Source of the DNA: Gammaproteobacteria bacterium
GTDB lineage: Bacteria > Pseudomonadota > Gammaproteobacteria > SZUA-229
DNA length: 64,000 bases
Reading direction: 5' to 3'
NCBI GenBank assembly: GCA_029882355.1
Contig: JAOUKV010000007.1
Location: forward strand, 10,114 to 74,113
This document shows positions 8,551 to 59,535 of this stretch, piece by piece. How positions within the stretch are numbered: the stretch's first letter is position 1; each line of letters starts with the position of its first letter. The position numbers and the translations under genes are program-made. The notes beneath the pieces are model-generated. The model searched no databases and was not told where the DNA came from. It saw nothing but the letters and a program-made list of their open reading frames with translations.

Positions 8551-8934
8551 TCATAGCTTTGTTTTAATTTCAGTTAGAATTTTTTCTAAATCCTCCAGGG
8601 CTATAGGCTTGCTCAATGTATCTATAACTGACATACCCAAGTCTGTTCCCACTGTTTTTGCCCAATTCAACATATAGTCACCGTGACCACTCATTAAAAT
8701 AATAGGACAGCGATTACCCGCAGAGCCTAACCACTCAAGTAAACCAATTGCATCAATATCTGGAATCGCAACATCCATTAGCAACAAGTCAGGCGACATA
8801 AGCAAATAGGCTTCCTGAAAATCCTTGCCGCTGGACATGGTAATAACCTCATAACCTGTAACCTCCCCGGCAAAAGAGGCAAATTCGCCCATATCTGGTT
8901 CATCATCAACAATTAATAAAATTGGTTTACTCAT
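8551..8934 (-). CDS. Single-domain response regulator (REC only)
   Basis: ILLIVDDEPDMGEF...LLLMDVAIPDIDA...ILMSGHG. The start was chosen at MSKPILL (8934), preceded by GGAGAAGAGAATA. The longer track ORF would overlap the upstream kinase by 56 nt. Confidence 0.75.
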   Translation of the reverse strand: MSKPILLIVDDEPDMGEFASFAGEVTGYEVITMSSGKDFQEAYLLMSPDLLLMDVAIPDIDAIGLLEWLGSAGNRCPIILMSGHGDYMLNWAKTVGTDLGMSVIDTLSKPIALEDLEKILTEIKTKL

Positions 8935-11900
8935 TATTCTCTTCTCCATCAATCTCAAATCGGACACGCTGTGCAAGCTCAAGCTTACTATAGGGTTTAG
9001 CTAATCGTTTACTAGCCAAAAGTCTTAAATCTTTGCTGAGATCACTTCCTCCCCGGGTATATCCCGAGACCAGTAATATCTTAATTTTTGGATGCAGCTG
9101 CAGTGCCGCTGTCGATAATTCATAACCATCCTTACCACCGGGCATAATAATGTCACTGAACAGTAAGTCGATTTTTTCTCCACTTTCAAGAAATGTCATA
9201 GCTTGTTTGCTATTCGTGGCCTGCAATACTCGGTAACCAAGTTCGCTAAGATAAATAGTCGCCACTTCAACGAGTTGAGGTTCGTCATCAACCACTAATA
9301 TCGTTTCTGTTCCAGTTGGCAATACAACCTTCAACTTACTATCCAGCACATTTAATTCATCTTTATCAGATCTTGGCAGATATATATAAAAGGTTGTACC
9401 AGCGCCAGATTCAGAAACAACATCTACATATCCATGAGAACGACGAACGAAACCATGCACCATGCTTAAGCCCAGACCAGTTCCTTTACCTTTCTCTTTG
9501 GTAGTAAAAAAAGGATCAAACATACGTTGCTGCACATCTTTACTAATGCCAGAACCAGAATCCGATACACATAAAACAACATAATCACCCGCACTGCTAC
9601 CATGCATATATGATGCTTTATCCTCATCTACGATTTCATTGTACACGCTAATATCCAGTCTGCCGTTTTCCTGCATAGCATCTCTAGCATTAATTACCAG
9701 ATTAATCATGGCATCCTCAAGATCGCCGGCATCAATGTCGGTCAACCAGAGATCATGCTCCAACTCATAGTTCACGCCAATATTTAGCCCGGCGGTTTTG
9801 TCTATCATAGATCGCATATCTTCAAGCATTTTACTTACAGATATGGTCTTCACCTCAGCAGCATTCAGCCTTGAGAAGCTAAGCAGACGTTTGGTTAATG
9901 CGCTACCACGTTTTGCTGTCTTAATCCCACTATCAATCCATTTATTCATATCAGCATTGTCACCTGAAAAACGTCTCAAGATTTCCAGATTACCACTCAT
10001 AATGCCAAGTAAATTATTAAAGTCATGAGCGATGCCACCCGCCATTTCTCCAATCGCTTCCAGCTTTCGTGACTGACGGATAATTTCTTCATGTTTACGT
10101 TGCGCTGTAATATCACGTTTTATCGCAACAAAGTTAGTGGTTTTCCCCGACGCATCCATCACCGGAGTGATATATTCCTCTTCCAGATAAATCTCACCAT
10201 CGCTACGTTTATTATATAACTCGCCGTGCCATGTTTTTCCTAATAATATAGTTCGCCACAGCTGCTCGTAGATAGAACTATCCTGCTTACCGGACTTTAA
10301 TATATTTGGTTTTTTACCTATGACCTCTGCAAAGGCATAACCCGTCATATTTTCAAAAGCCGGGTTAACCCACTGAATGATTCCTTCATTATCTGTAATG
10401 ACAATACCATCGGCAGCAGCTTGCAGAGCTTCTGATTGTAGATACATCTGTTCTTGCGCTTCTCGATGTAGAGTAATATCTTCGTTTAAGGACAGGTAAT
10501 TTATGATCTTGCCATTCGGAGATTTTATGGGAATAATCCTTGTGGATTGCCAAATAAAATCACCATTTTTATTCCTGTTATGGAAAACACCATTCCATTG
10601 CTGCCCACTAGTAATAGTTTGCCAAAGGTGCTGATATACTTTAACGGGCGTCTCACCTCCTTGAAATATTTTTGTATTTTTTCCAATCACATCTTCCGCG
10701 CTATAGCCGGTTATTGCTGTAAATGCAGCATTTGTATATTCAATATCACCCTTGATGCTGGTGATAATCATTGAAACAGGGCTTTGCTCAACTGCCAGAG
10801 ATAGTTTTTGCAATTCAGTTTCTCGAATTTTAATTGAACGAGCCATTGAATTAAAAGAGCTTGTTAGAAAAGCTAACTCATCATTACTTGATGGCACAGA
10901 AATTTCTTCATAACGGCCTCTACTCAGAGCTTCTATTCCCGCTACCAAACGACTCACAGGATGTAAAATTGTACGTCTTAAAAAATAAACGCCCAATGGA
11001 AATAACAAAAAAACATTGACCAACAGCACCACAATCATTGCTTTTTGTAGAATAGTAAATTCAGGGTACAACCTGGGTAACTCAAAGATAAACTTTAGAC
11101 TTTTTCCGTTACTCACTGGGTAATTTGCAATGCCATAAATATAATCTGGCTGTTCGACAAAATGCCAGCCCTGTAAATTTCCTGCAGCTAAATCTTTAGA
11201 GGATAATGCATCAATTCTTTTACCAATCTGAGCTTGATCCCCAGTAGAAATCCAGTTGCCATCATCAAAGGACAGATAAAAATCCAACTTTGCATACCTA
11301 CTAATACCTTCAACAAATGATCGCCCCAGTTCTCCTATCGTAATCAGGCCTACCCTCTCTTTAGATTTGTCATGAAGAGGTATTAAAACAGGTGAATGAA
11401 AACCCACAGTAAACCTGTCACCATGAGCATGAATATGGACATTGTTTTGATCGTTCTCATGTTCTTCAAAATTCATTGCTTTTTCTTTTACCGGCTCAAG
11501 CCAGAAAGGTAACTTATCTACTGGCTGATAATTTTTCAGTGTAATGTCTGAAATAAAATACTGGGGTATTCCTTTGTCATATGAAATATAGCCAATATGA
11601 CTTTGATATTTCTCATCAACAAAAGCAAAACTCGCTAGACGCATATATCCGTCATAGGCTGCGATAACACTTACATTCTCTGCTTTTAGCAACTTAACCA
11701 ACTCACCAGCCAAACTTTTCTTTTCAGAATCAAAAACAATTGACTGATAATCCTTTGGATTCTGATAGTGAGAGATCATACTCAACGAAGAAACAACATC
11801 CTCACGCATGGAAAATGAGCGCACATTTCTAAGTAGATTTTTACGATTATCGATATAAACACTTAAATCATCAAAAGCCTCATCAATTTGTTTATGAGCG

Positions 11901-12019
11901 GAATCTCGATTAATCTCATTATTGAGAAACAAAAAGACTGATCCCAAAATTAACAAAGAGAGAATTATTGAACTAAGCCAAAAAAACAATAATTTATGAT
12001 CAAGTTTAAATGTAATCAT
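8927..12019 (-). CDS. Hybrid sensor histidine kinase (periplasmic sensor - TM - HAMP - 2x PAS/PAC - HisKA - HATPase - REC)
   Basis: 1030 aa. It has an N-terminal TM segment, a periplasmic region of about 290 aa, a second TM (MIVVLLVNVFLLFPLGVYFL), PAS/PAC repeats, H-box [12 protein letters not shown], HATPase motifs DSGSGIS and GTGLGLSMV, and a C-terminal receiver (ILVVDDEPQLV...DIIMPGG). Confidence 0.9.
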   Translation of the reverse strand: MITFKLDHKLLFFWLSSIILSLLILGSVFLFLNNEINRDSAHKQIDEAFDDLSVYIDNRKNLLRNVRSFSMREDVVSSLSMISHYQNPKDYQSIVFDSEKKSLAGELVKLLKAENVSVIAAYDGYMRLASFAFVDEKYQSHIGYISYDKGIPQYFISDITLKNYQPVDKLPFWLEPVKEKAMNFEEHENDQNNVHIHAHGDRFTVGFHSPVLIPLHDKSKERVGLITIGELGRSFVEGISRYAKLDFYLSFDDGNWISTGDQAQIGKRIDALSSKDLAAGNLQGWHFVEQPDYIYGIANYPVSNGKSLKFIFELPRLYPEFTILQKAMIVVLLVNVFLLFPLGVYFLRRTILHPVSRLVAGIEALSRGRYEEISVPSSNDELAFLTSSFNSMARSIKIRETELQKLSLAVEQSPVSMIITSIKGDIEYTNAAFTAITGYSAEDVIGKNTKIFQGGETPVKVYQHLWQTITSGQQWNGVFHNRNKNGDFIWQSTRIIPIKSPNGKIINYLSLNEDITLHREAQEQMYLQSEALQAAADGIVITDNEGIIQWVNPAFENMTGYAFAEVIGKKPNILKSGKQDSSIYEQLWRTILLGKTWHGELYNKRSDGEIYLEEEYITPVMDASGKTTNFVAIKRDITAQRKHEEIIRQSRKLEAIGEMAGGIAHDFNNLLGIMSGNLEILRRFSGDNADMNKWIDSGIKTAKRGSALTKRLLSFSRLNAAEVKTISVSKMLEDMRSMIDKTAGLNIGVNYELEHDLWLTDIDAGDLEDAMINLVINARDAMQENGRLDISVYNEIVDEDKASYMHGSSAGDYVVLCVSDSGSGISKDVQQRMFDPFFTTKEKGKGTGLGLSMVHGFVRRSHGYVDVVSESGAGTTFYIYLPRSDKDELNVLDSKLKVVLPTGTETILVVDDEPQLVEVATIYLSELGYRVLQATNSKQAMTFLESGEKIDLLFSDIIMPGGKDGYELSTAALQLHPKIKILLVSGYTRGGSDLSKDLRLLASKRLAKPYSKLELAQRVRFEIDGEENNE

Positions 12020-12105
12020 GTATAAGAATTCACTCTAAAATATTAGATTCGTCTGATTAATATTGTTATTCAACATACGTCTTTCATAATGATTTATTTA
12101 GTACT

Positions 12106-13278
12106 TCAATCAGCCTGCGTATCTATCACAGGAAACAATAGAACAAAACAACTACCTTTTCCTACTTCTGTCTCAACAGTAATATGCCCTCTATGGTCAT
12201 GCATAATCCCATGCACCATGGCCAGCCCCATTCCTGTTCCCTTATCTGTACCTAATTCTTTGGTCGTGTAGAACGGATCAAAAATACGTTCTGAAAATTC
12301 TGATTTTATGCCACATCCAGTATCACAAACTGAAATCCGTATATAGTCACCCTCAAATTTTTCATGGCACGAGGAACATCCGTTTACAATATTTTTAGCA
12401 TACTGCAGGCCAATAGTAATACTCCCCTTTCCCTGCATAGCATCTAGTGCATTTAGGCATAGCTCTATTATCAGTTGATGTACTTGTTCTGGACGCGACA
12501 TGATTGCCAGATCAACATCTTCCAGTTTCAGCTTAAGCTCAATACTCGACGAAATATCAGATGTGATCATTGTTAATGATTCTTTAATCAACGGTGCTAG
12601 CATGCAAACTTCCAACTCCCCCACGCGACCATGCCCTTGTGTGAATGTCAGCATTTTTGCTACAAGGTCGCGCACACGCTCACTCGATGAATATATTTGC
12701 TCAACATAATGCTGCATTTTACTGTCACCAACGACTTCAACTTTATCTTTTAGCAGTTCCGTATAACCCATAATAGTGCCTAGAAGATTATTAAAATCAT
12801 GAGCAATACCACCGGTTAACTGCCCGATCGCTTCCATCTTATGTGCTTGCTTTAATTGTTTTTGTAACTCGGCCTTTTTCGCCTCAGCTTCAATTCGTTC
12901 AGCCTGCAAATCCAGCATTCGTCTACCAACTTTCAGCCTCGCTTGCAATTCAGCATTTTCGAAGGGTTTAACAATATAATCGTTAGCACCTGCTTCAAGT
13001 CCTTCAACAATATCACTCGACTTATTACGCGTGGTTAACAGGACAATATAAGGCGGGTCTTCAGTATTCTGCTGACGGATACGTTCGCATAATGCCTTGC
13101 CATCCAGTTTTGGCATCTCCCAGTCAAGTAACAACAACCGAGGACTTTCATCTCCCTGCAAAATATCCCAGGCAACTATACCATCTTCAGCTAGCACAGG
13201 CTGATAGCCCCACTTAACTGTTACACCTGACAGAATGGAACGAGATGTAACATCATCCTCAGCGATCAGCAACTTCAT
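12106..13278 (-). CDS. REC-histidine kinase fusion (receiver + HisKA + HATPase)
   Basis: [16 protein letters not shown]...DWEMPKLDG receiver, a coiled-coil linker, H-box [15 protein letters not shown] and HATPase motifs DTGCGI and [15 protein letters not shown] overlap with the upstream kinase. Confidence 0.88.
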
Positions 13279-16200
13279 AAGATTTTCTCCATCTCAACCT
13301 TTAGCTCTTCAAATTCCTGCCCAAGTTTGTGTATACACTGTTGAATAGTATCTATATCTGCTTTTTTTCCAGCCAGTTCTATTTTGAGTGCAATGGAACT
13401 CAATGCCATACCGCCTACATTTGCAGAGGCGCCCTTGATCCTATGAGCCATTCCTGCAATTTCTTTGGCATCCCCAATTTTCACCAATGATCTAAGCTGA
13501 TCGATCTGTATAGGCATATCTTGCAAGAAAACTTCTGCCACTGTGGTAATGAGATCCTGATCGCCCATCAATCTTTCACTCATTGCCACCCGATCAAACA
13601 CTAGCTTTTTAATTATTTCATCGTTGTTATCACCATCAGGCTTTATCATGGATGCTTGTTGGGATAACCTTATTTTATTATCACCTGGAGCTGATTGTTT
13701 ACGGAGTTCCTCAGGCAACCAGTGCTCAAGCACCTGCTGAACCTTCAAAACGTCTATTGGTTTAGAAATATAATCATCCATGCCAACTTCAATGCAATGT
13801 TCACGATCACCTTGCATAGCATTAGCAGTCATAGCGATAATAGGAATTTTATGGTCTTTAACATTGGTCGCCGGGTCACGAATCTGACGTGTAGCATCAA
13901 AGCCATCAAGTACTGGCATCTGACAGTCCATGAAAACAAGATCATAGGGCAACTGCTGAAGTGCACTGATCGCTTCAGCACCATTGGCAGCAAAATCAAT
14001 ACGTACACCAAACTTTTCTAACAGGCCTTTTGCGACCTTCTGGTTAACCATGTTATCTTCCACTACCAAGACACGTGCATTAAACGTTTTTACCATTATA
14101 TTTTTTTTATGAATAGTAAATTGGTCATCCGGATTACTGTCATCATCGACAGCTAGCATTAAATTATAAAGTTCCGACTGATTGACAGGTTTGCTGATAT
14201 AACCGCAAAAGCTAACCTCCAGGATTTTTTGAGCTGCACCAATCTGCCCCTGATTACCAAGTAACACCAGGCGAGTTGCTGACAGTTGCTTATCGTTAGC
14301 GATTTGCCTAGCCAGTAGCATACTATCTATATCTGAGATATGCATATCAACTAGTACAAAAGTGTAAGGCTTATTCTGCAAGACAGCATCCTGCATTATC
14401 TGAAGTATCTCAGATCCATTTTCGACCAGAGTATTTTCTATCTGCCATGAATCAAAAATTTCACCAAACAATTTTAGGCTAGCGATGCTGTCATCAACAA
14501 CCAATATTCTATCAACATGAAGCTTGTTTTTTGAGAGTAATGGTCTTTGCTGCTCTGAAACTAGCAACGGTAGTACAAACCAGAAAGTACTTCCTATGCC
14601 TGGTTTACTTTCTATACCGATTTCACCGTTCATAAGATCGACTAATTGCTTACAAATAGAAAGCCCGAGTCCAGTACCACCGTACTTGCGTGTTGTTGAT
14701 CCATCTGCCTGGCTAAAACGTTCAAACAAATTCTGTTGCTGCTCATTAGTAAGACCTATACCGGTATCGCTCACTGAAAAACACAGTAATACACCTTTCT
14801 CTGGATCATCTATACGCTCACAGGTAACTTTAACTTCTCCCTGTTCAGTAAATTTAATGGCATTAGCAACCAAATTAGTCAAAATCTGACGAATACGTCC
14901 AGGGTCACCTCGATAATTACATTGCTGAATAAAGTTAGCAGGACAAAGCAGTTCAAGCCCTTTATCCTCGGAACTGAATGTCATAGTGCGGGCAAAATCC
15001 TCCATCAATTCTACTATGTCAAAGTCCAAAAGTTCCAGCATGAGTTTGCCATCCTCAATCTTAGAAAAATCCAGAATATCATTAACTATAGAGAGTAGTG
15101 ACTCAGCACTATTTTTAATAGTCAAAGCACGCACATGCTGTGCCTGACTCAAATCATTTTCAAGCATAAGACCACTCATACCAATAACACCATTCATTGG
15201 TGTACGTATTTCATGACTCATATTCGCAAGAAAATCACTCTTGGATTGGTTAGCACACTTAGCCAGGTCTAGTGCATCAGCCAGTTCCAGTGTCCGTTGC
15301 TCAACAGCGATCTCTAGCTCATCACTATGTTGGTGAAGCGCCATATTTTTAAAATTGATTGATTGTAAAAGGGCATTAAAACGCTTCGCGAGGAGTCCAA
15401 TCTCTCCTTTATCTTCAATCTTAATTTCCCTAATAAAATCTATGTTTTCAAATTCATCCGTATTCTTCATCAAAACCTTAAGAGGAATAAGCAAGCGCTC
15501 AGCAAAAACCCAGCCTATAACTGTGATTAATAGAAAACTGACCCCACCAATAACAAAAAATCGCTCAACCAGATTATCTTTAATTAAATCCAGTTTACTT
15601 TTTGGATAACTAAGTAAAATTGAGCCTTCCATGCTCGGGTCTATAAATTGTAATTTGCGTGCAGAAACAAAGTGATTAACACCATTGAGTTGCATCATGG
15701 CCATGACATGGCTAATAGCTTCTTCTTCAGACAATAACGATTTATACGAGATATAATTCATCGGAATATCAATCATACGATTTTCACTCGTATTAAAAGT
15801 CGAGGCCATCACTCCTCGCCGACGAACAATAGTAATGTCCGTTAGGGTGTCTTTTTTCATGCCCGCAATTAGAGCATCATTGACAACATAACCAACAAGA
15901 ATAACACCAAGAATTTTTCCACTTTCATTTTCGTAATATATTGATGGTGCATATATAATAAGGCTATTTAAATCCTGAACTATGGAGAATTTAGTTTCAT
16001 TCTGCTGCAGTGCTGTACGCACGACTTTCCATGACATTAAAGAAGCACCGAGTAACTCTTGAGTCTCCGAGTGTGCAATGATGCGCCCCTCAGCATTCAT
16101 GAGGACAACAACATCAGCAGCCGACGCTTCTTTAAAGTATGCCATGGTGGCAGATTTTTCCTCTGAGCCATGTGATGAAAACATACCAGGCAGATGCTTA

Positions 16201-16433
16201 TCGTTAGCAAAATGCCGAGCCCAGTTCTCCGATACCTGACCTACAAGAGAAAGGAAATTTTCAGCCATGGCTTCTGTAGTGTGAAAACTTTCATGCATAG
16301 CAAGGTAAAAATCATCTTCTGCTAACCTGAGCACCATAATCCCGGAAACAACTTCAACAGCTAACACAACCACGACAAACAGGGATATAACCTTGAAACG
16401 TAATCTATGATAAAAAGGAATTTTAACATTCAT
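13275..16433 (-). CDS. Unorthodox hybrid sensor kinase (periplasmic Cache-like sensor - TM - HAMP - HisKA - HATPase - REC - REC - Hpt)
   Basis: 1052 aa with two TM segments flanking a periplasmic domain of about 250 aa. H-box [15 protein letters not shown], HATPase motifs DTGIGL and [11 protein letters not shown], two receivers ([11 protein letters not shown]...; [12 protein letters not shown]...DCQMPVLDG) and a C-terminal Hpt ([13 protein letters not shown]). Confidence 0.9.
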
Positions 16434-16445
16434 GTTTACTGGGTC

Positions 16446-17819
16446 TTATTTTAAGTTTTTTTCAGGGTAATGTTGTCGATAAGCATCGATCATCCATTTC
16501 ACTGACTTATCATCATGGCAACCACTATTCTGACAAGAGCTGGGCATATCATTTTTCTGTGCGACTTCTGGTGTGATGATTTTAAAAGCATGGTTACGGA
16601 TACTTAAAAATCCACCAGTCGTAACAATGCGTGGCATATGGCAATCCGCACAGGTCACGGTCGCTGTGGGACAGGGGTAATGAGGCACACCAGTTTTCGC
16701 CACATTATGCGACATACTATCAATATGGCAGCCACCGCATTGTGTAACGCCATCGCCAGAATGAGGCAACGCTTTATCACGCCCATGTGGTTCATGGCAT
16801 GCAACACAGGTCACACCAAATTTGGCGGTTTCTAGAGTAGGCTTTTTGTCTTTATCTGCGTGGCGATAGTCAGTAGAGTGGCAATATAGACACTCGTCGG
16901 TCAACTCGCCTCTATCACCACCTTTTTCATGTTCTTCCTTAAGTTTTTTTACTGCATTAGCATGCTTAGATTTAGACCAGTCACCAAATTCCTGATGGCG
17001 GTTCTTAGCGATACCATTACCCCAAAAAAACTTACCTTTTACGTCCTGTTTAGGAGTCATAGGTGAGATTGCAGATGTCAGATCCTCACCAGGTTTGTAA
17101 TTGACAGGGAAATTAAATATAGCACCGTGTACACCATCTTTAGGCGTGTTCTGTCCACGATTATGGCACTGACCACAAACGGTGGCAGAAACGCTACGAA
17201 CAATATCTTTTTTATTTGACAAATCAGCCGATTCATTTACATGGCAAAGTATACAAGGAGATGAAGTTATCTTTCGCTTATTTTGCACATGTACACTTCC
17301 AGGGCCATGACAGGCTTCACAACCAATACCAAATTCGGCAAATTTCAGCGTTGCTGGATCAAAGCCTGTGGTGTGACAACCATTACATTTCTTTGACATG
17401 GGCGTTTGCTTCCAGTCATTGACTTTATAGGCTTCCCATTTCTTCAACATAACGTGCCATTTTGCGGGCAGAGGATAATATTCACCATCAATCATGCGAG
17501 CATAAACCTGCTCCCACTTGCTACCGAGAACATATTCAACGTCTTCTTTTTTAAAGGTCAGCGCGGGGTCAGTAGAATTGAAATCGCCTAAGATACGTTC
17601 TCCCGTTGTTACCGGGAGAAACATGTATGGATGTAGGGTATTTGACTTCCATGAATCATAATTTGACGCATGACAATCACGACATTCCTCAGAGGTTATA
17701 TAAAGATTTTGATCGGAAACGCCATTATGAAGATAAATCACAGAACCGATTGCGATTACTACAAAAATTGCAATAAGACTAAATAGTTTTTTCATTAGAT
17801 TCTCAAAAAAATACGGCAT
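16446..17819 (-). CDS. Membrane-anchored multihaem cytochrome c (9 CXXCH + 1 CX4CH)
   Basis: 457 aa with N-terminal TM/signal anchor KKLFSLIAIFVVIAIGSVIYL. Haem sites are CRDCH, CNGCH, CEACH, CILCH, CGQCH, CLYCH, CVACH, CGGCH and CADCH, plus CQNSGCH. It sits 12 nt upstream of the 1052 aa kinase on the same strand. Confidence 0.85.
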   Translation of the reverse strand: MPYFFENLMKKLFSLIAIFVVIAIGSVIYLHNGVSDQNLYITSEECRDCHASNYDSWKSNTLHPYMFLPVTTGERILGDFNSTDPALTFKKEDVEYVLGSKWEQVYARMIDGEYYPLPAKWHVMLKKWEAYKVNDWKQTPMSKKCNGCHTTGFDPATLKFAEFGIGCEACHGPGSVHVQNKRKITSSPCILCHVNESADLSNKKDIVRSVSATVCGQCHNRGQNTPKDGVHGAIFNFPVNYKPGEDLTSAISPMTPKQDVKGKFFWGNGIAKNRHQEFGDWSKSKHANAVKKLKEEHEKGGDRGELTDECLYCHSTDYRHADKDKKPTLETAKFGVTCVACHEPHGRDKALPHSGDGVTQCGGCHIDSMSHNVAKTGVPHYPCPTATVTCADCHMPRIVTTGGFLSIRNHAFKIITPEVAQKNDMPSSCQNSGCHDDKSVKWMIDAYRQHYPEKNLK

Positions 17820-33208: not shown

Positions 33209-33285
33209 TGGCGGACCGGACGGGACTCGAACCCGCGACCTCCGGCGTGACAGGCCGGCATTCTAACCAGCTGAACTACCGGTCC
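33209..33285 (-). tRNA. tRNA-Asp (GTC)
   Basis: Own fold: GGACCGG/CCGGTCC acceptor stem, anticodon loop CTGTCAC, T-loop TTCGAGT and encoded CCA. Confidence 0.9.
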
Positions 33286-33291
33286 TAAAAT

Positions 33292-33370
33292 TGGTGGGTG
33301 GTGAGGGATCGAAGCCCCGACGCTCACCTTGTAAGAGCGACGCTCTACCAGCTAAGCTTTTTAACCACCC
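33292..33370 (-). tRNA. tRNA-Val (TAC)-like with aberrant arms, possible pseudogene
   Basis: GGGTGGT/ACCACCC acceptor stem and anticodon loop CTTACAA are present. There is a 5-nt A-run between the acceptor stem and the D-stem, and the T-stem 3' strand is 1 nt short. Confidence 0.5.
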
Positions 33371-33385
33371 CGCCAAAAGTGCGCG

Positions 33386-33658: not shown

Positions 33659-33894
33659 TATTGTTTCCTATGTATTTAAGATGATTTACTTTCTTATTTA
33701 TAATTGTATTTCAATACTTTTATATTTTTGCTCTTATTATGAGATGTCCATGGCTTTGAAATATAAACGCCGTGCATTTTATACCAGCCTGCTACTAGCC
33801 CTGTCAATGAAAAATGCAGGAAAAATGCGGCTTTCGCCTATTTTTAGCTCATCATCCATGATGAATTAATGTAGCAATCGCCGCTTTCAGGTCA

Positions 33895-36326
33895 TTAGTG
33901 ATGGTGTACTCTAACTCCAGATTTCTTTCCTTTTGTGCTTGTTTTTCTGTTACTTGCAGAGTCATCTTCAAGTGGAGTAGGCATTTTTTCAAGTGCTATT
34001 TCAAGTACTTCATCGATCCAGCGCACCGGCTTAATATCCAATTTAGACATAATGTTTTTTGGGATATCAACCAGGTCTTTTTCATTATCATGCGGAATAA
34101 TAATAACCTCGATGCCTGCACGATGAGCTGCCAACAGTTTTTCTTTAAGCCCACCAATAGGTAAAACTTCACCACGCAATGTAATCTCACCGGTCATCGC
34201 AACATTGGCATTAACAGGTATACCCGTTAGCGATGAAGCTAACGCAGTGCACATGCCGACACCAGCACTAGGACCATCTTTAGGTGTTGCACCTTCAGGC
34301 ACATGCACATGAATATCTTTATCATCTTGGAAATTACTAATCAGGCCTAACGACGCAGATCGACTACGAATCACCGTCATTGCAGCCTGGATAGATTCCT
34401 GCATAACATCACCCAACTGACCGGTGTGAGATAGTTTACCTTTACCCGGCATTACGGCCGACTCGATAGTTAATATTTCACCACCAACTTCGGTCCACGC
34501 CAACCATTAACCTGACCTATCTGATTGTGTTTCTCAGCCACGCCATAACGGAAACGTTTTACGCCCAGATATTTTTCAATATTTTTTGAGGTCACAGAGA
34601 CGACTTTGCTCTCTGGCTTGAGTACCATTTGTTTAACCACTTTACGACAAATCTTGGCCAGTTCTCGCTGCAAGCTACGAACACCCGCTTCACGAGTATA
34701 AAGTCGAACAATGTCTCTCAAGGCTGACTCATTAACCTGTAACTCACCATCTTTCAGGCCATTTTCTTCCAGCTGCTTAGGCAATAAATATTTTGTTGCT
34801 ATAGCCACTTTTTCATCTTCGGTATAACCCGGTAGGCGAATCACTTCCATACGATCCAGCAAAGGCGCGGGGATATTCATACTATTCGATGTCGCAACGA
34901 ACATCACGTCAGAGAGATCAAAATCGACTTCTAAATAATGATCGGAAAAGGTGTGATTTTGTTCTGGGTCAAGCACTTCTAACAAAGCTGATGCAGGATC
35001 ACCCCTGAAATCTGCCGCCATCTTGTCAATTTCATCCAGCAAAAACAATGGATTACGAGTACCAACCTTGCTCAAGTTCTGAATCACCTTACCTGGCAGG
35101 GAGCCAATATAAGTCCGGCGATGACCACGAATTTCAGACTCATCGCGTACACCGCCTAAAGACATACGGGTATATTTACGATTAGTTGCACGCGCGATAG
35201 ATTCACCTAGTGACGTTTTACCTACACCCGGTGGTCCCACCAAACACAAAATAGGTCCTTTGAGTTTTTTCACGCGCTGCTGTACTGCAAGATATTCGAG
35301 AATGCGTTCCTTAACTTTTTCAAGACCATAATGATCATCATTGAGCACCTGTTCGGCGCCCGCAAGATCACGTCGTATTTTTGATTTTTTCTTCCAGGGA
35401 CAATCCGCCAACCAATCAATGTAGTTTCTAACTACAGTCGCTTCTGCAGACATCGGCGACATCATTTTTAGTTTATTAAGTTCACTAGTGGCCTTCTTTT
35501 CAGCCTCTTTACTCATACCCGCTTCGGCAATGCGTTTTTCAAGCTCTTCAACTTCATTGGGCACATCATCCATATCACCTAATTCTTTCTGAATCGCTTT
35601 CATCTGCTCATTCAAATAATACTCGCGCTGACTTTTTTCCATCTGCTGCTTAACTCGTCCGCGAATACGCTTTTCGATTTGTAACAAATCAATTTCAGCA
35701 TCGATCAAACTCATTAGATATTCAAGTCGCGCATGCACACTGGAAATTTCAAGAATTTTCTGTTTTTCATCCAGCTTTAGCGACATGTGTGCCGCAATGG
35801 TATCGGATAATCTTGAGGGTTCGTCAATACCCGCCAATGAGGTTAAAATTTCAGCAGGTACTTTTTTATTGAGTTTCACATACTGATCGAAGACGTTCAG
35901 GATAGAACGCGACAAAATATCGATTTCACGATCATCTTCATCTGTAACCTCATCCAGCGCTGAATAATTAGCGACAAAAAAATCACCTCTTTCATGCAGG
36001 CCTTCAACTTTTGCTCGCTGCACGCCTTCTACTAAAACTTTAATAGTTCCATCGGGTAATTTTAACAACTGAAGAATCGTCGCCAATGTGCCAATTTCAT
36101 GCACATCATCAATGCCGGGCTCGTCGATATCCGCACTTTTCTGAGCAATCAATAAAATCTTTTTATCACCCTGCATTGCTGTATCGAGTGCATGAATTGA
36201 TTTTTCGCGCCCGACAAACAAAGGGATAACCATATGGGGATAAACCACAACATCACGTAACGGTAAAACCGGAATTTCAGTTGTCACGGATGAGCTGGAT
36301 TGATCTTTATCACTTGAACTGGCCAT
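33895..36326 (-). CDS. lon: ATP-dependent protease Lon, reading frame split by an apparent 1-nt deletion near 34500-34504
   Basis: ORF 34470..36326 carries the Lon N-terminal domain and AAA+ module (GPPGVGKTS). ORF 33895..34503 carries the S16 protease domain with catalytic PKDGPSAG. E. coli has the contiguous sequence [12 protein letters not shown], but here the frame breaks between QVNG and LAWTEVGG. Confidence 0.9.
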
Positions 36327-39878: not shown

Positions 39879-39962
<84 letters not shown>

Positions 39963-40123
39963 ATGTGTGGGTGCGAATCATATCAAAAAAAAGCACGTTG
40001 CACGGCCTTATTCAGAATAAATTCAGCAATTTTTTGACATTTTATAGTTATATATCCAATAACCCAGGAACTTGTACGATAAAGACAGATTTAACGACTA
40101 GTGCTTGATGATCGTAACTAAAA

Positions 40124-40169
40124 ATGGTGGGTCGTGAGAGACTTGAACTCTCGACCAAGAGATTAAGAG
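40124..40169 (-). repeat. Truncated copy of tRNA-Lys 3' half (46-bp perfect direct repeat of 42994..43039), candidate attR/attL
   Basis: atggtgggtcgtgagagacttgaactctcgaccaagagattaagag is identical at both loci and covers tRNA positions 32-76. Confidence 0.85.
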
Positions 40170-40378
40170 AACTTCGTGCCCAAATATCGTTGTTTTCAAA
40201 ACAACAACTTACCAATCCACTCAATCACTTACATTCTATAGCGGTGATCTGAGTGCACTCTAACAACAATAAGAGCGTCCGTAATCAGACCCTGAGCGCC
40301 CCTAAACCGTCCCTTGAGCTACCACTTGCTAATGAGTCGGGGATACTACCTGATGGCCGGGTCAAGTGGAAGGTTGCA

Positions 40379-40657
40379 ATGAACAATAAACTTAGAAAAA
40401 AGCCTGCTATTGATAAAGATGGTTACATGCGACTACTGTATAACGAGTACCCAAGCATTCAACCAGTGAACATAAAAATCGGTGATTATCCAATGAAAAG
40501 TCTGCCGGAAGATCAGGCTAAAGAAGCATTCTCAGCACTTGGCTCCAGCTCAAAAACTTTTATTGAATCACTATACAAGTCAGGCATGATTGGCGGGCTA
40601 CGTTCAATCACCCACGTTAAAACTAAAGACCAGGAATGGCCGATAACTGATATTTAA
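40379..40657 (+). CDS. Hypothetical protein (about 93 aa) inside the tRNA-Lys-bounded islet
   Basis: Track ORF 40253..40657. The likely start is MNNKLRKKPAID, with GGAAGG 5 nt upstream. No domain recognised. The stop lies 28 bp before the IS30 left inverted repeat. Confidence 0.4.
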   Translation: MNNKLRKKPAIDKDGYMRLLYNEYPSIQPVNIKIGDYPMKSLPEDQAKEAFSALGSSSKTFIESLYKSGMIGGLRSITHVKTKDQEWPITDI

Positions 40658-40685
40658 GATGAAGTTAGTGCCGAAGTCTGCTTTC

Positions 40686-41920
40686 GGCGGTGACCTCAAC
40701 CGGTCGACGCAACACATGCGTTAAATCTCTCTGCTGGTGTTTCAAATTCTAATGTTTTTCTTGGTCGCTCGTTTAGCTGACGAGCCACAGCATTGAGCTT
40801 TGTTTGTGAGTGTACCGCTAAGTCAGTTCCTTTTGGAAAATATTGTCGGAGTAACCGATTGGTATTTTCATTAGAACCTCGTTGCCAGGGACTACGTGGA
40901 TCACAAAAATAAACATCAATGTCAGTCTCTAGAGTAAACCGTTTGTGATCGGCCAGTTCTTTCCCTCTATCCCAGGTCAGTGATTTGTATAATTCATCCG
41001 GTAGTTTCTTTGATTGTTTTATCAGTGCGGATACGACACTCTTGGTATCTTTATTTTTAACTTTAGCTAGCATGACGTAACGTGTGTGTCGTTCAACTAA
41101 AGTGGCGATGTAACTATTATTTGAGCCTGCAATAAGGTCACCTTCCCAATGTCCGGGCACGGCTCTATCTTCTACAGATGCAGGCCGCTCACTAATCGAT
41201 ACGGCATCTTTGATTTTTCCAAGGCCATCTTTCTTGAGGCTGGCATGTTGAGAGCGGCGTATCGCTCGTTGAGTCCTGAGGTACTGCTGTAGCTCCTTTT
41301 TAAGCACACCACGGGTTTGAATAAATAAACTTCGGTAGATAGTCTCGTGTGACACTTGGCTGCTCTCATTGTTGGGGTAGGTTCTTTTTAGCCATCCCGC
41401 TATTTGTTCAGGTGACCAGTTTTTCATGAGCTTTGCCGCCACTTTTCGACTTAGCGATGGGTGAGTCGCGAGTTTACACAGCTTGGGGCGACAGGCTCGA
41501 TCCCAGGCGGCTTGATCAGCATGTGCAGCTCGATAGTCATCATAACCACCATTGCGTTTAATTTCACGACTGATGGTTGAAGGTGAACGGTTTAATTGCG
41601 ACGCGATTGAGCGTAATGATCGCTGACAGACGATGCCTCTTGAAATCTCTTCACGCTCAGAAATCGTCAGGGCAAGTTTTGATCGTACACGAGGTGCAGG
41701 TCGAATGCCTCCACTGGGTGACAGTATGCTAAAGATTGAGGATGATTCTCTATCAAATAGCCGACCAATTGAACTTTGGGATTCACCTCGTTGCCAGCGA
41801 TTCCATATTTCGTTCTTTTGTTCAGTGGTGTATTTTATTCGTGTTCTGTAGGCCATTTACAACACTCCATCTTTTTAATTAAAGATTATAGTGTTGCGTT
41901 GACCGGTTGAGGTCACCGCC
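40686..41920 (-). mobile_element. IS30-family insertion sequence (1235 bp) with 30-bp terminal inverted repeats
   Basis: IR-L at 40686..40715 (GGCGGTGACCTCAACCGGTCGACGCAACAC) and IR-R at 41891..41920 (reverse complement, 29/30 identical) flank a single transposase ORF. Confidence 0.9.
40696..41856 (-). CDS. IS30-family transposase
   Basis: 386 aa with an N-terminal HTH (WQRGESQSSIGRLF), a DDE integrase core (HWEGDLI...) and a C-terminal ETPAERFN motif typical of IS30 transposases. Confidence 0.9.
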   Translation of the reverse strand: MAYRTRIKYTTEQKNEIWNRWQRGESQSSIGRLFDRESSSIFSILSPSGGIRPAPRVRSKLALTISEREEISRGIVCQRSLRSIASQLNRSPSTISREIKRNGGYDDYRAAHADQAAWDRACRPKLCKLATHPSLSRKVAAKLMKNWSPEQIAGWLKRTYPNNESSQVSHETIYRSLFIQTRGVLKKELQQYLRTQRAIRRSQHASLKKDGLGKIKDAVSISERPASVEDRAVPGHWEGDLIAGSNNSYIATLVERHTRYVMLAKVKNKDTKSVVSALIKQSKKLPDELYKSLTWDRGKELADHKRFTLETDIDVYFCDPRSPWQRGSNENTNRLLRQYFPKGTDLAVHSQTKLNAVARQLNERPRKTLEFETPAERFNACVASTG

Positions 41921-41943
41921 AATAGCGGACGTTCGACCTAAAT

Positions 41944-41976
41944 AAAAAAGGCGACTTAAAAGCCGCCTTTTTATAG
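41944..41976. terminator. Rho-independent terminator downstream of the PEP-CTERM gene
   Basis: AAAAAGGCGACTTAAAAGCCGCCTTTTTAT: a GC-rich stem with flanking A- and T-tracts, 15 nt after the stop at 41988. Confidence 0.65.
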
Positions 41977-41987
41977 AGCCATATGAT

Positions 41988-42509
41988 TTAACTTTTATAT
42001 TTTTTGCGTCTAACAAAACCTATTAAACCAATTAAACCTGAACCGAATAACCATGCAGCTGCAGGAACTGGAACAGCTGAAACTGTACCTTGCCAAGATG
42101 GTGCCTGACCTGGGAATGGAGAAGTCTGCATTGGTACACCTGGGCCAGCAGATCCGTCCGCATTGAAAATAGCAAGAACGGGAATAGGTGAAGAAAGACT
42201 CCAGTCAAAAGCAAGGCCAAATGCAACCTGACCAGCAGTCAGAGTAAAGTTATATGAGAAAGCACCCCGTGATGAAGTACCTGCCCAAGTACTAGAAGAT
42301 GCATAAGAAGTTAAAGTAGTAGCAGTCCAGGGCTGGCTGAAGAATGTACCACCAAAAGTTGTACCCAGAGTGTCAGTATCAACAACACCAGTCGCAGCGC
42401 TCAGGCTAGGGAAGTTCATGCCTGTGATGTTAATTACCAGTGCTGAAGCCGGAGCTGCAGCAGTACCCAGAGTTAAAGCCATAGCACCTGCAAGTATTGC
42501 TTTATTCAT
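41988..42509 (-). CDS. Secreted protein with C-terminal PEP-CTERM-type sorting signal (VPLPA-CTERM variant)
   Basis: Signal peptide MNKAILAGAMALTLGTAAAPASA. A Thr/Ser/Gly-rich body ends in VPVPAAAWLFGSGLIGLIGFVRRKKYKS, which is motif, TM helix and basic tail. Confidence 0.8.
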   Translation of the reverse strand: MNKAILAGAMALTLGTAAAPASALVINITGMNFPSLSAATGVVDTDTLGTTFGGTFFSQPWTATTLTSYASSSTWAGTSSRGAFSYNFTLTAGQVAFGLAFDWSLSSPIPVLAIFNADGSAGPGVPMQTSPFPGQAPSWQGTVSAVPVPAAAWLFGSGLIGLIGFVRRKKYKS

Positions 42510-42994
42510 TTGTCATACTCCTTTACACATTTGTCCAAATTTATAATTTCCACACAGTAAATGCAAGATTGAAGCCTTATTTATAAGCTGCTGTTTTAAT
42601 AGGAATTAATAAAAAACATCATTCTAACAGTATTAAAAGTGTAAAGAAAAAATATTTAAGAGATTAATCACGAACGTCCGCTTTGGTCGTTAACAGTCAC
42701 TCAGATCTAGGCGCAGGTAGCGTATGAGAAAGAACAAGAGACTAAAAATCTCTTGTTCGAAATAATGTTGCTTTGAAATCAACAAGTTATATTTTCTAAC
42801 TGTTGTTTTCAAAACGACAAAAATGTGACAAAAAATATTTTTTGAGGTAAAAAAGGGAAATCATTAGCTGTAACTAACTGTTTTGTAAGGTGTTATTTTT
42901 GAGCGTCCTTGAGACGCCCCTGAAGCGAGATAAAAAAGCAGAGCACCGAAGCAATGATAAGAACATAACTCGTTGTTTTTAAAGGAATAAAAGA

Positions 42995-43070
42995 TGGTGG
43001 GTCGTGAGAGACTTGAACTCTCGACCAAGAGATTAAGAGTCTCCTGCTCTACCAACTGAGCTAACGACCC
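42995..43070 (-). tRNA. tRNA-Lys (CTT)
   Basis: Own fold: 5' GGGTCGTTAGCTCAGTTGGTAGAGCAG matches E. coli tRNA-Lys. Anticodon loop CTCTTAA, T-loop TTCAAGT, encoded CCA. Confidence 0.85.
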
Positions 43071-56566: not shown

Positions 56567-57385
56567 ATGACCATGCAAAGCAAAGCCCTGAAGCCCGAAG
56601 AATACTTTATTAAGGACGAGCCTTTTTACCAGTCGATTGGTGAAGAGATCGAAGTCTTTGAAGCGGCTTATCGCCAGGGCCTGCCTATTTTATTAAAAGG
56701 CCCCACCGGCTGTGGCAAAACCCGTTTCATGGAACACATGGCCTGGCGTTTAAAGCGCCCCCTGATCACGGTATCCTGTCACGACGATTTAACTTCCTCT
56801 GATTTAGTCGGACGTTTTTTAATCTCCGGCGGTGAAACCGTCTGGGTTGATGGCCCGCTGGCTCGTGCTGTACGCAATGGTGCTATCTGTTATCTCGATG
56901 AAGTCGTCGAAGCGCGCAAGGACACCACCGTGGTGATTCACCCACTGGCCGATGACCGACGCGTTCTGCCTATGGAAAAAGTCGGTGAACTTTTAGAAGC
57001 TACGCCTGAATTCTGTTTAACCATCTCTTATAATCCTGGCTACCAGAGTGTAATGAAAGATTTAAAACAAAGCACACGTCAACGCTTTGTCGCACTGGAA
57101 TTTGATTACCCGGATGCACAGCTGGAAGCAGAGATCATTATCAAGGAAACCGGTATTGAAGATAAAACAGCGCAGCAGTTGGTTAAATTCGCTCACATGA
57201 CTCGCGACTTAAAAGGCAGTGGACTCGACGAAGGCGCATCAACACGTTTATTGGTACACGCCGCTAAATTGATTGTTGATGGTATCAAACCCGTCACTGC
57301 CTGCAAGACAGCCATCACCCAGGCAATTACCGATGACAGCGATATGCTGATCGCCATCAACGAACTTTCCTCTTCATTGTTTTAG
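56567..57385 (+). CDS. CbbQ/NorQ/NirQ-type MoxR AAA+ ATPase
   Basis: 272 aa with Walker A GPTGCGKT and Walker B CYLDEV, the length and motif pattern of CbbQ/NorQ. It is followed 23 nt later by a VWA partner. Confidence 0.85.
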   Translation: MTMQSKALKPEEYFIKDEPFYQSIGEEIEVFEAAYRQGLPILLKGPTGCGKTRFMEHMAWRLKRPLITVSCHDDLTSSDLVGRFLISGGETVWVDGPLARAVRNGAICYLDEVVEARKDTTVVIHPLADDRRVLPMEKVGELLEATPEFCLTISYNPGYQSVMKDLKQSTRQRFVALEFDYPDAQLEAEIIIKETGIEDKTAQQLVKFAHMTRDLKGSGLDEGASTRLLVHAAKLIVDGIKPVTACKTAITQAITDDSDMLIAINELSSSLF

Positions 57386-57408: not shown

Positions 57409-59535
57409 ATGTCTCGCCAGTCACTAACAGAAGCACAGATCATTGAATTTCTGGACAAATGTCTGGAAGTCGAATTTTCATTCGTCAAAAATGAAATACC
57501 CGCTGTCGACATTGTTAAACAGTCACGTCCACATCAAGACTTCATTCTCAATCTGACACAACGCGTTGCCGCCACCAATATTGAACTCGCCTATCAGTTT
57601 GCTGTTCATTCAAAACAGGCGCTTGAAGAAATGGATTTGCTCATGGTCGAAGCCTGGGCGATGTCGGCAACCGATCAATATGACAAACAGGGTTTGTACC
57701 CCGCCATGTCGGCGATCAAAAATTTAGATCAATTCATCCACACCGCACACGTAAAAGCCTGTGGTGCAGTATTCGAAGAAGAAGCATCCATACTACTGCC
57801 ATTTATACAGGGTCTTGCCGGGCGCAAACTCAAACTGGCAGAAGCCGAACAGGCTTACACCGACACTGAAACCATTTTTATTCCCGCCATCACTGCGCTA
57901 TTTGAAACCAAAAAAGAAAACTTCCTGCATTATAAAGTCACCGTGGCTTATCTTTGGGCGCAAATTCAATTTGGCAGCTTCAGAGTTGATTTAGAAATTC
58001 TGTCTAATGATCCCGACAAACTCAATAAATTTTCTGTACTGGAAAACATCCGTCTCGAAGCCTGTCTTGAAAGAGAACTACCAGGTTTGTATCGTGACAT
58101 GCAGATACTGAAAACGCTTTTCCACCCCGAACATGAACAAGACACAGAAAATTTACTCTCGATTGAATCTATACAGGCATTACTACACGAGAATGCCGAA
58201 GCAGCTCATTCACTCGACATTATTGAAAACATAAAAGTGGATCAATGGCCTGAAGTCTATTGTTACCAGGGAACCATTCAAATCGACCAAGTTGCAACCA
58301 TCTTTGAGCGACGTATTGAAAAGGAGAAAGCCTATTTTCGAGTCGCGCTCAGTGAACTCGCCAATGAGCAATCAAATAAGCAGGATGATAATCCTATTGA
58401 GGAAACTGACGAAAATTCAGCCTTCAAACTTGCTAACAAAGATGAACATACAAAACAAAGCGGCAACATTGATCTTGAACTCGATGGTGAATTAATCACA
58501 CCGCCTGAACATGTGCGCGAGCTGATGACCTCCATCATCGTCGACTTCGGAGAAATCCCACCTGAATATTTATTCGCCGCTGGCCCCGGTGAATATGATC
58601 TTAAAAAGTACCAGGAGGAAGAGATTAATCCTAATGATGTCTGGAAAGGTACCTATCATGAAGAAGGTGCAGAAATATACAATGAATGGAATTTCAAACG
58701 CCAGTATTATCACAAGAACTGGTGCGTGTTGCGCGAGTTAGAGATCAAACCGGTTTACGATGATTTTGTTGCCGACACACTCAACAAGCACAAAGGTTTA
58801 TTAAAAAGCCTGCGCCACACTTTTGAAGTCTTGCGCGGTGAAGACAAACTACTCAAGCGACAACCCTATGGTGACGACATCGATATTGATGCTTTGGTCG
58901 ATGCGCTGGCTGACACCAAAAGCGGCATGGAAATGAGTGAGCGAGTGTTCACCAAAATGCACAAGGAAGATCGCAACGTCGCTGTCATCTTCATGGTCGA
59001 CATGAGCGGTTCGACGCGTGGCTGGATTAATGAAGCCGAACGTGAATCGCTGATCCTGTTAGCCGAAGTATTAGAAATACTCGGTGACCGTTACGCTATC
59101 TACGGTTTCTCTGGCATGACCCGCAAACGTTGCGAGTTATACAAAATAAAAACTTTCGATGAGAACTACGACGACGAAATCAAAGCCCGCATCAGCAACA
59201 TCCAACCACAGGACTACACCCGCATGGGTGTATTCATCCGTCATATAACAAAAATGTTCCGCGACGTAGAGGCCAGCACCAAATTATTGATCACCCTGTC
59301 CGACGGAAAACCGGACGACTACGACACCTACCGCGGTGAATACGGCGTTGAAGATACCCGTCAGGCGCTGTATGAAGCCCACCGCGAAGGTATCCACCCC
59401 TTCTGCATCACCATCGACGAAAAGGCGCGTGATTATTTACCGCATATGTATGGCGCTGCCAACTATGCGGTAATCGACGATATTGCTAAACTGCCGCAAA
59501 AGGTTTCTGATATTTATCGAAGGATTACGAGCTAA
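57409..59535 (+). CDS. CbbO/NorD-type von Willebrand factor A domain protein
   Basis: 708 aa with a C-terminal VWA domain whose MIDAS motif is in VIFMVDMSGST...LSDGKPDD. Pairing with the upstream AAA+ ATPase is typical of CbbQO/NorQD. Confidence 0.82.
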   Translation: MSRQSLTEAQIIEFLDKCLEVEFSFVKNEIPAVDIVKQSRPHQDFILNLTQRVAATNIELAYQFAVHSKQALEEMDLLMVEAWAMSATDQYDKQGLYPAMSAIKNLDQFIHTAHVKACGAVFEEEASILLPFIQGLAGRKLKLAEAEQAYTDTETIFIPAITALFETKKENFLHYKVTVAYLWAQIQFGSFRVDLEILSNDPDKLNKFSVLENIRLEACLERELPGLYRDMQILKTLFHPEHEQDTENLLSIESIQALLHENAEAAHSLDIIENIKVDQWPEVYCYQGTIQIDQVATIFERRIEKEKAYFRVALSELANEQSNKQDDNPIEETDENSAFKLANKDEHTKQSGNIDLELDGELITPPEHVRELMTSIIVDFGEIPPEYLFAAGPGEYDLKKYQEEEINPNDVWKGTYHEEGAEIYNEWNFKRQYYHKNWCVLRELEIKPVYDDFVADTLNKHKGLLKSLRHTFEVLRGEDKLLKRQPYGDDIDIDALVDALADTKSGMEMSERVFTKMHKEDRNVAVIFMVDMSGSTRGWINEAERESLILLAEVLEILGDRYAIYGFSGMTRKRCELYKIKTFDENYDDEIKARISNIQPQDYTRMGVFIRHITKMFRDVEASTKLLITLSDGKPDDYDTYRGEYGVEDTRQALYEAHREGIHPFCITIDEKARDYLPHMYGAANYAVIDDIAKLPQKVSDIYRRITS

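Follow-up and report, generated by a model that had tools for sequence, protein, structure and literature searches.

A 2.8-kb islet without an integrase gene was found inserted at the tRNA-Lys(CUU) gene of an uncultured gammaproteobacterium, in a 64-kb stretch of assembly GCA_029882355.1 (contig JAOUKV010000007.1, positions 10,114 to 74,113; hereafter the window). With a probability of roughly 0.7, this islet represents an integrase-less derivative, similar to the cis-mobilizable elements (CIMEs), of an element whose tyrosine integrase crosses over in the anticodon loop. The islet is bounded by two copies of a 46-nt sequence, ATGGTGGGTCGTGAGAGACTTGAACTCTCGACCAAGAGATTAAGAG, which occurs exactly twice in the window (40124-40169 and 42994-43039, both in minus-strand orientation). 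Chance expectation for this repeat was zero: in 100 shuffles the maximum was 0, even when three mismatches were tolerated. Similarity between the two copies reached 50 nt if one mismatch was permitted. In tRNA sense, the repeat extends from position 32, where the anticodon loop (CTCTTAA) begins, to the CCA end plus one base.

One repeat copy, at 42994..43039, lies inside an intact tRNA-Lys(CUU) gene (42995..43070, minus strand; ARAGORN, anticodon CTT; Rfam tRNA model, 72.7 bits) that belongs to a Pro-Arg-His-Lys(CTT) tRNA cluster (43386-42995, minus strand; ARAGORN). The other copy, at 40124..40169, adjoins the native spacer that leads to tRNA-Leu(UAG) (39879..39962, minus strand; ARAGORN), the native downstream neighbour of tRNA-Lys on the far side of the empty site. 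An Rfam scan identified tRNAs only, with all other hits being sub-threshold noise. A regenerated tRNA gene (tDNA) together with a displaced fragment marks the ends of tDNA islands and is the signature by which such islands are mapped, and the anticodon loop, like the T loop, is a recognised class of crossover sublocation (PMC4383910).

Neighbourhoods of related genomes (metagenome-assembled genomes, MAGs, of uncultured Gammaproteobacteria) were retrieved via trigger factor (Tig). Three of these, L001 (87% Tig identity), L003 and L004 (both 81%), showed the order Pro-Arg-His-Lys-Leu with a Lys-Leu gap of merely 115-160 nt, and the tRNA-Lys of L001 was identical to that of the window. The partial copy, 161-nt spacer (39963-40123) and tRNA-Leu of the window aligned with the tRNA-Lys 3' half, spacer and tRNA-Leu of these three relatives; following the tRNA-Lys 3' end, the native spacer reads TTTTTAGTTACGATCATCAAGC. 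DNA downstream of the intact tRNA-Lys of the window had no counterpart in L001, L003 or L004. The partial copy thus carries the native spacer, and the intact gene is followed by foreign DNA. This identifies the partial copy as the original tRNA-Lys 3' end, now displaced (attachment site attR side), while the 3' part of the intact gene from position 32 onward is islet-supplied (attL side). The spacer alignment and the empty sites thus identify the 2,824 bp between the repeats (40170-42993) as an insertion at the anticodon loop, and this DNA came from outside together with a replacement 3' half of tRNA-Lys. An earlier reading of the DNA letters alone (the original prediction) had described a perfect 46-bp copy of the tRNA-Lys 3' end at both ends of the islet as the footprint of site-specific integration into a tRNA gene. 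The exact repeat, the shuffles, the empty sites and the spacer alignment all bear this out; its proposed comparison with empty sites in relatives was positive, and the conserved tandem tRNA pseudogene that it named as a possible refutation is contradicted by the spacer on the partial copy and by the three relatives without the insert.

The Lys-Leu interval was also variable elsewhere among the relatives. In L002 (131-3417) it contained a pyruvate phosphate dikinase gene (ppdK), and in L014 (5636-8677) it held approximately 3 kb encoding an outer-membrane-like protein, a multi-CxxCH protein (cytochrome) and a membrane protein. Neither of these intervals carried an integrase-type repeat of tRNA-Lys. 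L014 additionally contained a 53-nt direct repeat (5627-5679 and 5769-5821; 87% identical, 142 nt apart) that comprises the last 9 nt of tRNA-Lys and its downstream flank, and which may have been left behind by another small insertion, or by a duplication, at the 3' end of the tRNA.

Genes of the islet were limited to a small 'orphan' gene, an IS30-family transposase gene within an insertion sequence (IS; 40689..41917, minus strand), and a cargo gene with a PEP-CTERM-like product; genes for integration or transfer were not among them. Subtraction of the IS leaves approximately 1.6 kb. No open reading frame (ORF) of the islet matched PF00589, and the islet contains no recombinase of the tyrosine or serine type. 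A tblastn search with related integrases on the non-coding arms (P arms, see below) of the window and of a sister islet did not find an integrase remnant. The cargo gene (41988..42509, minus strand) encodes a 173-aa secreted protein whose C-terminal sorting tail, VPVPAAAWLFGSGLIGLIGFVRRKK, is typical in appearance for PEP-CTERM/VPLPA-CTERM proteins, although its scores were just under both curated cut-offs (TIGR03370, 23.6 bits versus 25.35; PF07589, 17.6 bits versus 20.7). An independent contig of the cargo gene (L107, SRR7132771) starts exactly at base 43039, the inner edge of the 46-nt repeat, and ends exactly at the IS boundary.

Relatives of the islet were found in several other sequences, and in all of those that carry an att site (L086, L082, L099 and L100), as in the window, the block of tRNA identity starts at position 32. 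In L086, a 1.3-kb contig from another organism, a 3' fragment of tRNA-Lys(CUU) is joined to a homologous arm, and the junction, AAGAGATTAAGAG followed by AACTT, is identical to that in the window base for base. Beyond this junction, L086 encodes a homolog of the orphan gene product (80% identity) and then different small ORFs, with no IS. A sister islet was identified in L082, which together with L083-L085 represents MAG RS_8_68 and its source metagenome samples; RS_8_68 is the MAG with ppdK at the Lys-Leu site. This islet is located in a tRNA-Ala(GGC) gene, has a 46-nt exact repeat that again runs from position 32, and also has no integrase. Its order is homologous arm, orphan homolog (57% identity), IS30-family copy, a gene for a secreted FG-GAP protein at the position of the cargo gene of the window, a non-coding arm of approximately 550 nt, and an intact tRNA-Ala gene. 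The displaced fragment was 46/46 identical in both islets.

An integrase was directly linked to the same att architecture in L099 (1.1 kb). On this contig, the C-terminal end of a tyrosine integrase (HSLRHT...RRYSH) is followed by an arm of 78 nt, a tRNA-Lys(UUU) fragment of 45 nt, the homologous P' arm, an orphan homolog and a phage-like ORF. Only the part of the tRNA from the anticodon loop onward is present, and its 5' half is missing; L099 represents an attP arrangement, either as an excised form or as a tandem junction. L100 carries the same tRNA fragment, arm and orphan gene. On a further contig, L098, genes for an excisionase-like protein and a PF00589 integrase of 444 aa are followed by a small ORF and then by a distant homolog of the orphan gene. 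PHROG matches of the integrase-bearing relatives were phage-like (phrog_1, integrase; phrog_66, excisionase; phrog_872, neighbouring gene), and no conjugation genes were seen on their short contigs. Searches with the arms, the approximately 130-aa protein and the integrases identified no annotated relatives of this element family in phage and plasmid collections or in family libraries.

The inventory given in the original prediction (an orphan ORF, an IS30 element, a VPLPA/PEP-CTERM gene and approximately 480 bp of non-coding DNA) agreed with the ORF and family scans, which together with the tblastn search also confirmed its description of an islet without an integrase. Its proposal of integrase-type att sites is backed by L099, in which a tRNA-Lys(UUU) fragment has a tyrosine integrase gene on one side and, directly opposite, homologs of the arm and the orphan gene on the other. 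The P4-type integrase that it suggested as a partner found no such backing: nothing specific to P4 was seen, and the related integrases show only a generic PF00589/Xer-like catalytic domain.

Both sides of the islet retain non-coding arms next to the tRNA-derived core. The P' arm (40170..40252, plus strand) starts next to the core with AACTTCGTGCCCAAATATCG and is a conserved block; the five P' arms of the window, L086, L082, L099 and L100 aligned well. The P arm (42510..42993, plus strand) is an AT-rich, non-coding region of 484 nt that runs up to the core with GTTGTTTTTAAAGGAATAAAAG and has a block in common with L082 (42675-42699). A 19-nt palindrome, GTTGTTTTCAAAACAACAA (also written GTTGTTTTCAAAACAAC), occurs once in the P' arm (40189-40207) and twice in the P arm (42767-42785 and 42802-42820). 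Within the 64-kb window this palindrome is confined to the islet, with six strand-hits versus 0.09 expected.

A second motif, RCGYCCNT, has a background frequency of 0.3 per kb and occurs in both arms at conserved distances. On the P side, the window, L082 and L099 each have two copies, 11 nt apart, at a distance of 87-91 nt from the core; in the window they lie at 42903 and 42914, approximately 90 nt from the core, and in L099 they overlap the integrase stop codon. On the P' side, two or three copies are present in the window, L086 and L082, the first of them exactly 106 nt from the core, and these overlap the first approximately 20 codons of the 134-aa orphan gene. Judged from its sequence, this layout resembles an attP site with putative arm-type and accessory sites, in which the RCGYCCNT motifs would be binding sites for the integrase or for an accessory protein. 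Inspection by eye additionally revealed that a block of the conserved P' arm of L082 and L086, ACACCTTACAAA, recurs inverted in the P arm of the window (42862-42878, approximately 115-130 nt from the core); it may represent a paired site for an accessory protein.

The P arm also contains a hairpin with a 12-bp stem (42731..42760) that mimics the anticodon arm of tRNA-Lys. It matches tRNA positions 20-50 (25/30 identical) in inverted orientation, and the match takes in the 5' half of the anticodon arm, a part of the tRNA outside the 46-nt repeat. None of 500 shuffles reached the score of this match. The homologous site in L082 resembles tRNA-Ala (score reached by 15/500 shuffles), while cross-comparisons between hairpins and tRNAs of the two islets were not significant. 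In a terminator scan, the hairpin scored as terminator-like on the strand of the tRNA operon, downstream of that operon; a sigma-70 promoter scan yielded nothing above shuffle expectation. The hairpin may serve as a further core-like site or as a replacement terminator, or it may be a scar.

The small gene next to the P' arm (40253..40657, plus strand) encodes a basic protein of 134 aa (pI 9.5). Its GTG start is kept in all relatives; a shorter ORF would start at 40380. No match to Pfam, NCBIfam or PHROG was found, and only five homologs were detected among billions of proteins. Substitutions between family members were predominantly at third codon positions, with dN/dS values of 0.16-0.26 (0.26 between the two integrase-less islets), indicating a real, constrained gene that is under purifying selection. 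This gene adjoins the att site in every att-bearing case (window, L082, L086, L099 and L100), and the supposed orphan is a conserved backbone gene of the element family. From its position, the encoded protein is a candidate accessory or recombination-directionality factor. The predicted pI was 9.1-9.5 for the proteins from the islets, as compared with 6.4-6.6 for those of L099 and L100.

Further searches for this protein yielded few additional sequences. Its AlphaFold model was uninformative (pLDDT 37), with an alignment of only three sequences. In a profile search of 1.84 billion representatives, only P0131 and P0263 resembled real additional homologs; the non-family matches were long multi-stretch proteins hitting only the PDGxxKW stretch (profile positions approximately 24-60), and two of them, when checked, were both repeat proteins of the beta-propeller type. 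A metagenome scan for more family members likewise returned only beta-propeller false matches to PDGxxKW. Scans of viral contigs with the orphan profile, the arm DNA pattern and the L098 integrase gave no match, nor did tblastn against phage and plasmid collections.

These observations are consistent with a scheme in which an element with an attP carrying tRNA positions 32-76 recombined, probably by the action of a tyrosine integrase, with the chromosomal tRNA-Lys(CUU) gene. The copy brought in by the element now completes the tRNA, and the original 3' fragment was displaced by 2.87 kb, to its present position beside the native Lys-Leu spacer. Integrase-bearing members of the family are laid out as integrase, short P arm, tRNA-fragment core, P' arm and conserved approximately 130-aa gene. 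The copy in the window has no integrase but retains the two cores, the 130-aa gene and the two arms with the motifs repeated in them; it also contains a single cargo gene for a PEP-CTERM-like secreted protein and an IS30-family element that landed later. The islet is thus non-autonomous: it cannot move by itself, and its excision or transfer would depend on a related integrase provided in trans. That it can still be mobilised in this way is possible, and is suggested by the occurrence of two integrase-less islets with the same backbone in different tRNA genes, by their undecayed 46/46 repeats, by the kept motif spacing and by the selection on the small gene.

Several results weigh against this interpretation. 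No integrase able to act on the site was found among the window's ORFs of 150 aa or more that were scanned or carry gene calls; the remaining ORFs of this size encode housekeeping, transport and signalling functions. The relatives that do encode an integrase come from other organisms, are represented by short contigs (1.1 and 2.5 kb) and target tRNA-Lys(UUU); they are relatives rather than the parent. Neither an excised circle nor an empty allele of the same strain was seen, and other samples with identical flanking genes were represented by contigs that stop at the repeats. Exact-protein look-ups with tig, clpP, folD and the cargo gene similarly gave nothing beyond the source contig and short contigs broken at the IS and the repeat. 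Apart from the two RCGYCCNT motifs, P-arm similarity among the window, L082 and L099 was weak: the best distal block was reached by 5/300 shuffles, and the proximal comparisons of the window with L082 and of the window with L099 were not significant. This weak similarity means that a shared integrase-less ancestor of the two islets is only suggested. Finally, the role proposed for the 134-aa protein comes without any fold or family match.

An alternative that is unlikely but carries some weight is that the islet is an inert fossil: a once autonomous element that lost its integrase and other genes by deletion and became fixed in the lineage, with its att sites left as scars. The missing integrase, both in the islet and among the ORFs of at least 150 aa in the surrounding 64 kb, the lack of a remnant in the islet, the failure to see a circle or an empty allele, and the IS that has since landed in the islet are all in line with such decay. 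So is the presence of unrelated, ordinary genes in the Lys-Leu interval of L002 and L014, which would make this interval simply a variable spot. However, the second integrase-less islet with the same backbone, in the tRNA-Ala gene of L082, would require the same loss to have occurred twice independently. Moreover, a displaced fragment that has no function is still 46/46 identical in both islets, the arm motifs have kept their exact spacing, and the small gene has remained under purifying selection between copies that have no integrase. The original prediction left the choice between a decayed integrative element and a cassette dependent on an integrase in trans; the sister islet in tRNA-Ala slightly favours the cassette over one-off decay, and neither is proven.

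A bolder version of the trans-dependent cassette, which must be regarded as doubtful, is that miniature integrase-less cassettes of approximately 1.6-4 kb, each with a single cargo gene, form a family not described so far and actively hop among tRNA genes (Lys-CUU, Ala-GGC and Lys-UUU) with the integrase of phage-like relatives. The approximately 130-aa protein would then act as a hijacking or directionality factor, and the anticodon-arm mimic would contribute to site choice.

The transposase in the islet is a second potential source of mobility. IS30-family transposases can serve as the mobility enzyme of larger elements, as in ICE6013 of Staphylococcus, and an IS30-family gene lies beside the orphan gene at the same position in both the window and L082. 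That the whole 2.8 kb was moved by this transposase is nevertheless very improbable. The transposase gene (40696-41856, minus strand; NF033563, 293.8 bits; HTH_38 and rve domains) is immediately enclosed by inverted repeats of its own, which delimit a unit of 1,229 bp. Comparison of flanks among copies identified the true ends of this IS as 27-nt repeats, GGTGACCTCAACCGGTCGACGCAACAC (40689-40715 and 41891-41917). At least 7,997 transposase homologs were found at E ≤ 1e-100; all of the 120 among the matches listed were 82-97% identical, nearly all were 386 aa long, and many were located on contigs of approximately 1.23 kb. The element is thus a typical high-copy IS that breaks assemblies, with copies in unrelated contexts. 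In the two islets, the IS copies lie in opposite orientation and are only 73% identical at the DNA level (approximately 75% at the protein level, by eye), whereas relatives that are 96-97% identical exist elsewhere. L086, by contrast, has the junction and the orphan gene without any IS. Target duplications of IS30 are moreover 2-3 bp long, and are not 46-nt copies of a tRNA end. On the strength of its own 27-nt ends, its copies in unrelated contexts and the IS-free L086, the IS30-family transposase was rejected as the mobility mechanism; the element is a later, unrelated secondary insertion and a passenger in the islet.

The flanks of the IS form a palindrome-like target, with AGTCTGCTTTCGGC (40665-40688) on one side and GCCAATAGCGGACGT (41918-41941) on the other, and the same consensus flanks unrelated copies in L090 and L092-L096. 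An apparent 51-nt inverted repeat was considered as the IS end and rejected: its outer 24 nt follow position and not the orientation of the IS, other copies have the same target-like flanks, and L107 stops exactly at the 27-nt repeat. A third, solo sequence resembling a target half-site, CGAACGTCCGCTTTGGTCGTTAAC (42662-42694), was observed in the P arm, as a result of which the cargo gene is bracketed by inverted copies; the sister islet L082 shows the same bracketing of its cargo by half-site-like sequences.

Local tandem duplication or decay of a tRNA-Lys pseudogene without any insertion can be set aside almost entirely since, even though tRNA clusters do gather duplicated and decayed copies and a decayed tRNA-Val lies in the same window, the partial copy begins exactly at the anticodon loop, the native spacer is on that copy while foreign DNA follows the intact gene, L001, L003 and L004 have no insert, and the junction recurs base for base in L086 and beside an integrase in L099.

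Some further features were observed elsewhere in the window. The decayed tRNA-Val(TAC) is located at approximately 33292-33372 (minus strand), just upstream of tRNA-Asp (33209-33285), and was not called by ARAGORN in either the window or the public contig (L081; ENA ERZ27296342 k141_619263). Its D arm contains four inserted nucleotides (AAAA), its T arm has lost 1 nt and several bases are substituted; L003, L005-L008, L010 and L014 carry an intact Val-Asp pair. The lon gene (33894-36326, minus strand) has a 1-nt deletion near 34501 (34474-34532) relative to L081, GGTTTGGCG being changed to GGTT-GGCG, as a result of which Lon (810 aa) is broken up into two ORFs, 33895-34503 and 34470-36326. Over the 21 kb compared between the window and L081, two substitutions were found besides (near 35622 and 29883), and the difference in lon is likely an assembly or consensus difference and not biology. 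A gene for a CbbQ/NorQ-type AAA protein (56567-57385) is directly followed by a 708-aa ORF (57409-59535, plus strand) for which Pfam gave no match at E ≤ 1e-5; the position of this ORF suggests a CbbO/NorD-like partner. A dense array of hybrid histidine kinases and response regulators (1030, 390 and 1052 aa) was found at 8927-17819 (minus strand) beside a 457-aa multihaem cytochrome-like protein, and is unrelated to the islet.

The islet indicates that a tRNA fragment without a neighbouring integrase can be one half of a well-preserved pair of att sites, and not mere noise, and that such elements would escape island-finding tools for which an integrase is mandatory, for instance Islander-type filters. 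If the family is mobilised in trans, single genes for surface or secreted proteins would have in it a minimal vehicle for transfer between tRNA loci of uncultured Gammaproteobacteria of the sulfur-cycle type. It would also provide a compact system, consisting of a core, two arms and one small protein, in which to study how anticodon-loop integrases choose their targets. If the islet is only a fossil, it would represent an ordinary scar of past integration.

The internal 1,229-bp element of the islet corresponds to the IS30 family in its equivalog-level transposase match, inverted repeats, high copy number and palindrome-like target; it is a passenger rather than the agent of the tRNA insertion. 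In lambda-type attP sites, the core is flanked by arms with short direct repeats (arm-type sites) at fixed distances. The islet core appears to lie between comparable arms, with two putative motifs in one arm and two or three in the other arm; unlike in lambda, the motifs of the P' arm extend into the beginning of a coding region and the core is a tRNA fragment.

With Islander-type tDNA islands (PMC4383910), the islet shares a tRNA gene regenerated by the island, a displaced 3' fragment in direct orientation, a start at the anticodon loop ('A' sublocation) and absence from relatives. It differs from them in having no integrase gene, by which that definition would filter it out, and in its size of 2.8 kb (approximately 1.6 kb without the IS), which is far under that of a typical island. 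CIMEs, which are known from Streptococcus and other Firmicutes, are elements whose integration genes were lost and whose attL and attR were kept (PMC5704250). As in CIMEs, integration genes are missing from the islet, attL and attR are retained, and reliance on a related integrase is to be expected; the islet cores are identical, and the arm motifs lie at the same distances from the core as in the integrase-bearing relative. In contrast to CIMEs, no link to conjugative elements was found and the integrase-bearing relatives look phage-like. The host of the islet, moreover, is an uncultured gammaproteobacterium, and the islet keeps one conserved backbone gene. As for the origin of CIMEs by deletion from an ICE or IME, relatives with an integrase do exist for the islet, while neither a deletion scar nor, by tblastn, an integrase remnant was found in it. 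The class of mechanism is well known, while the element family itself is small and unannotated.

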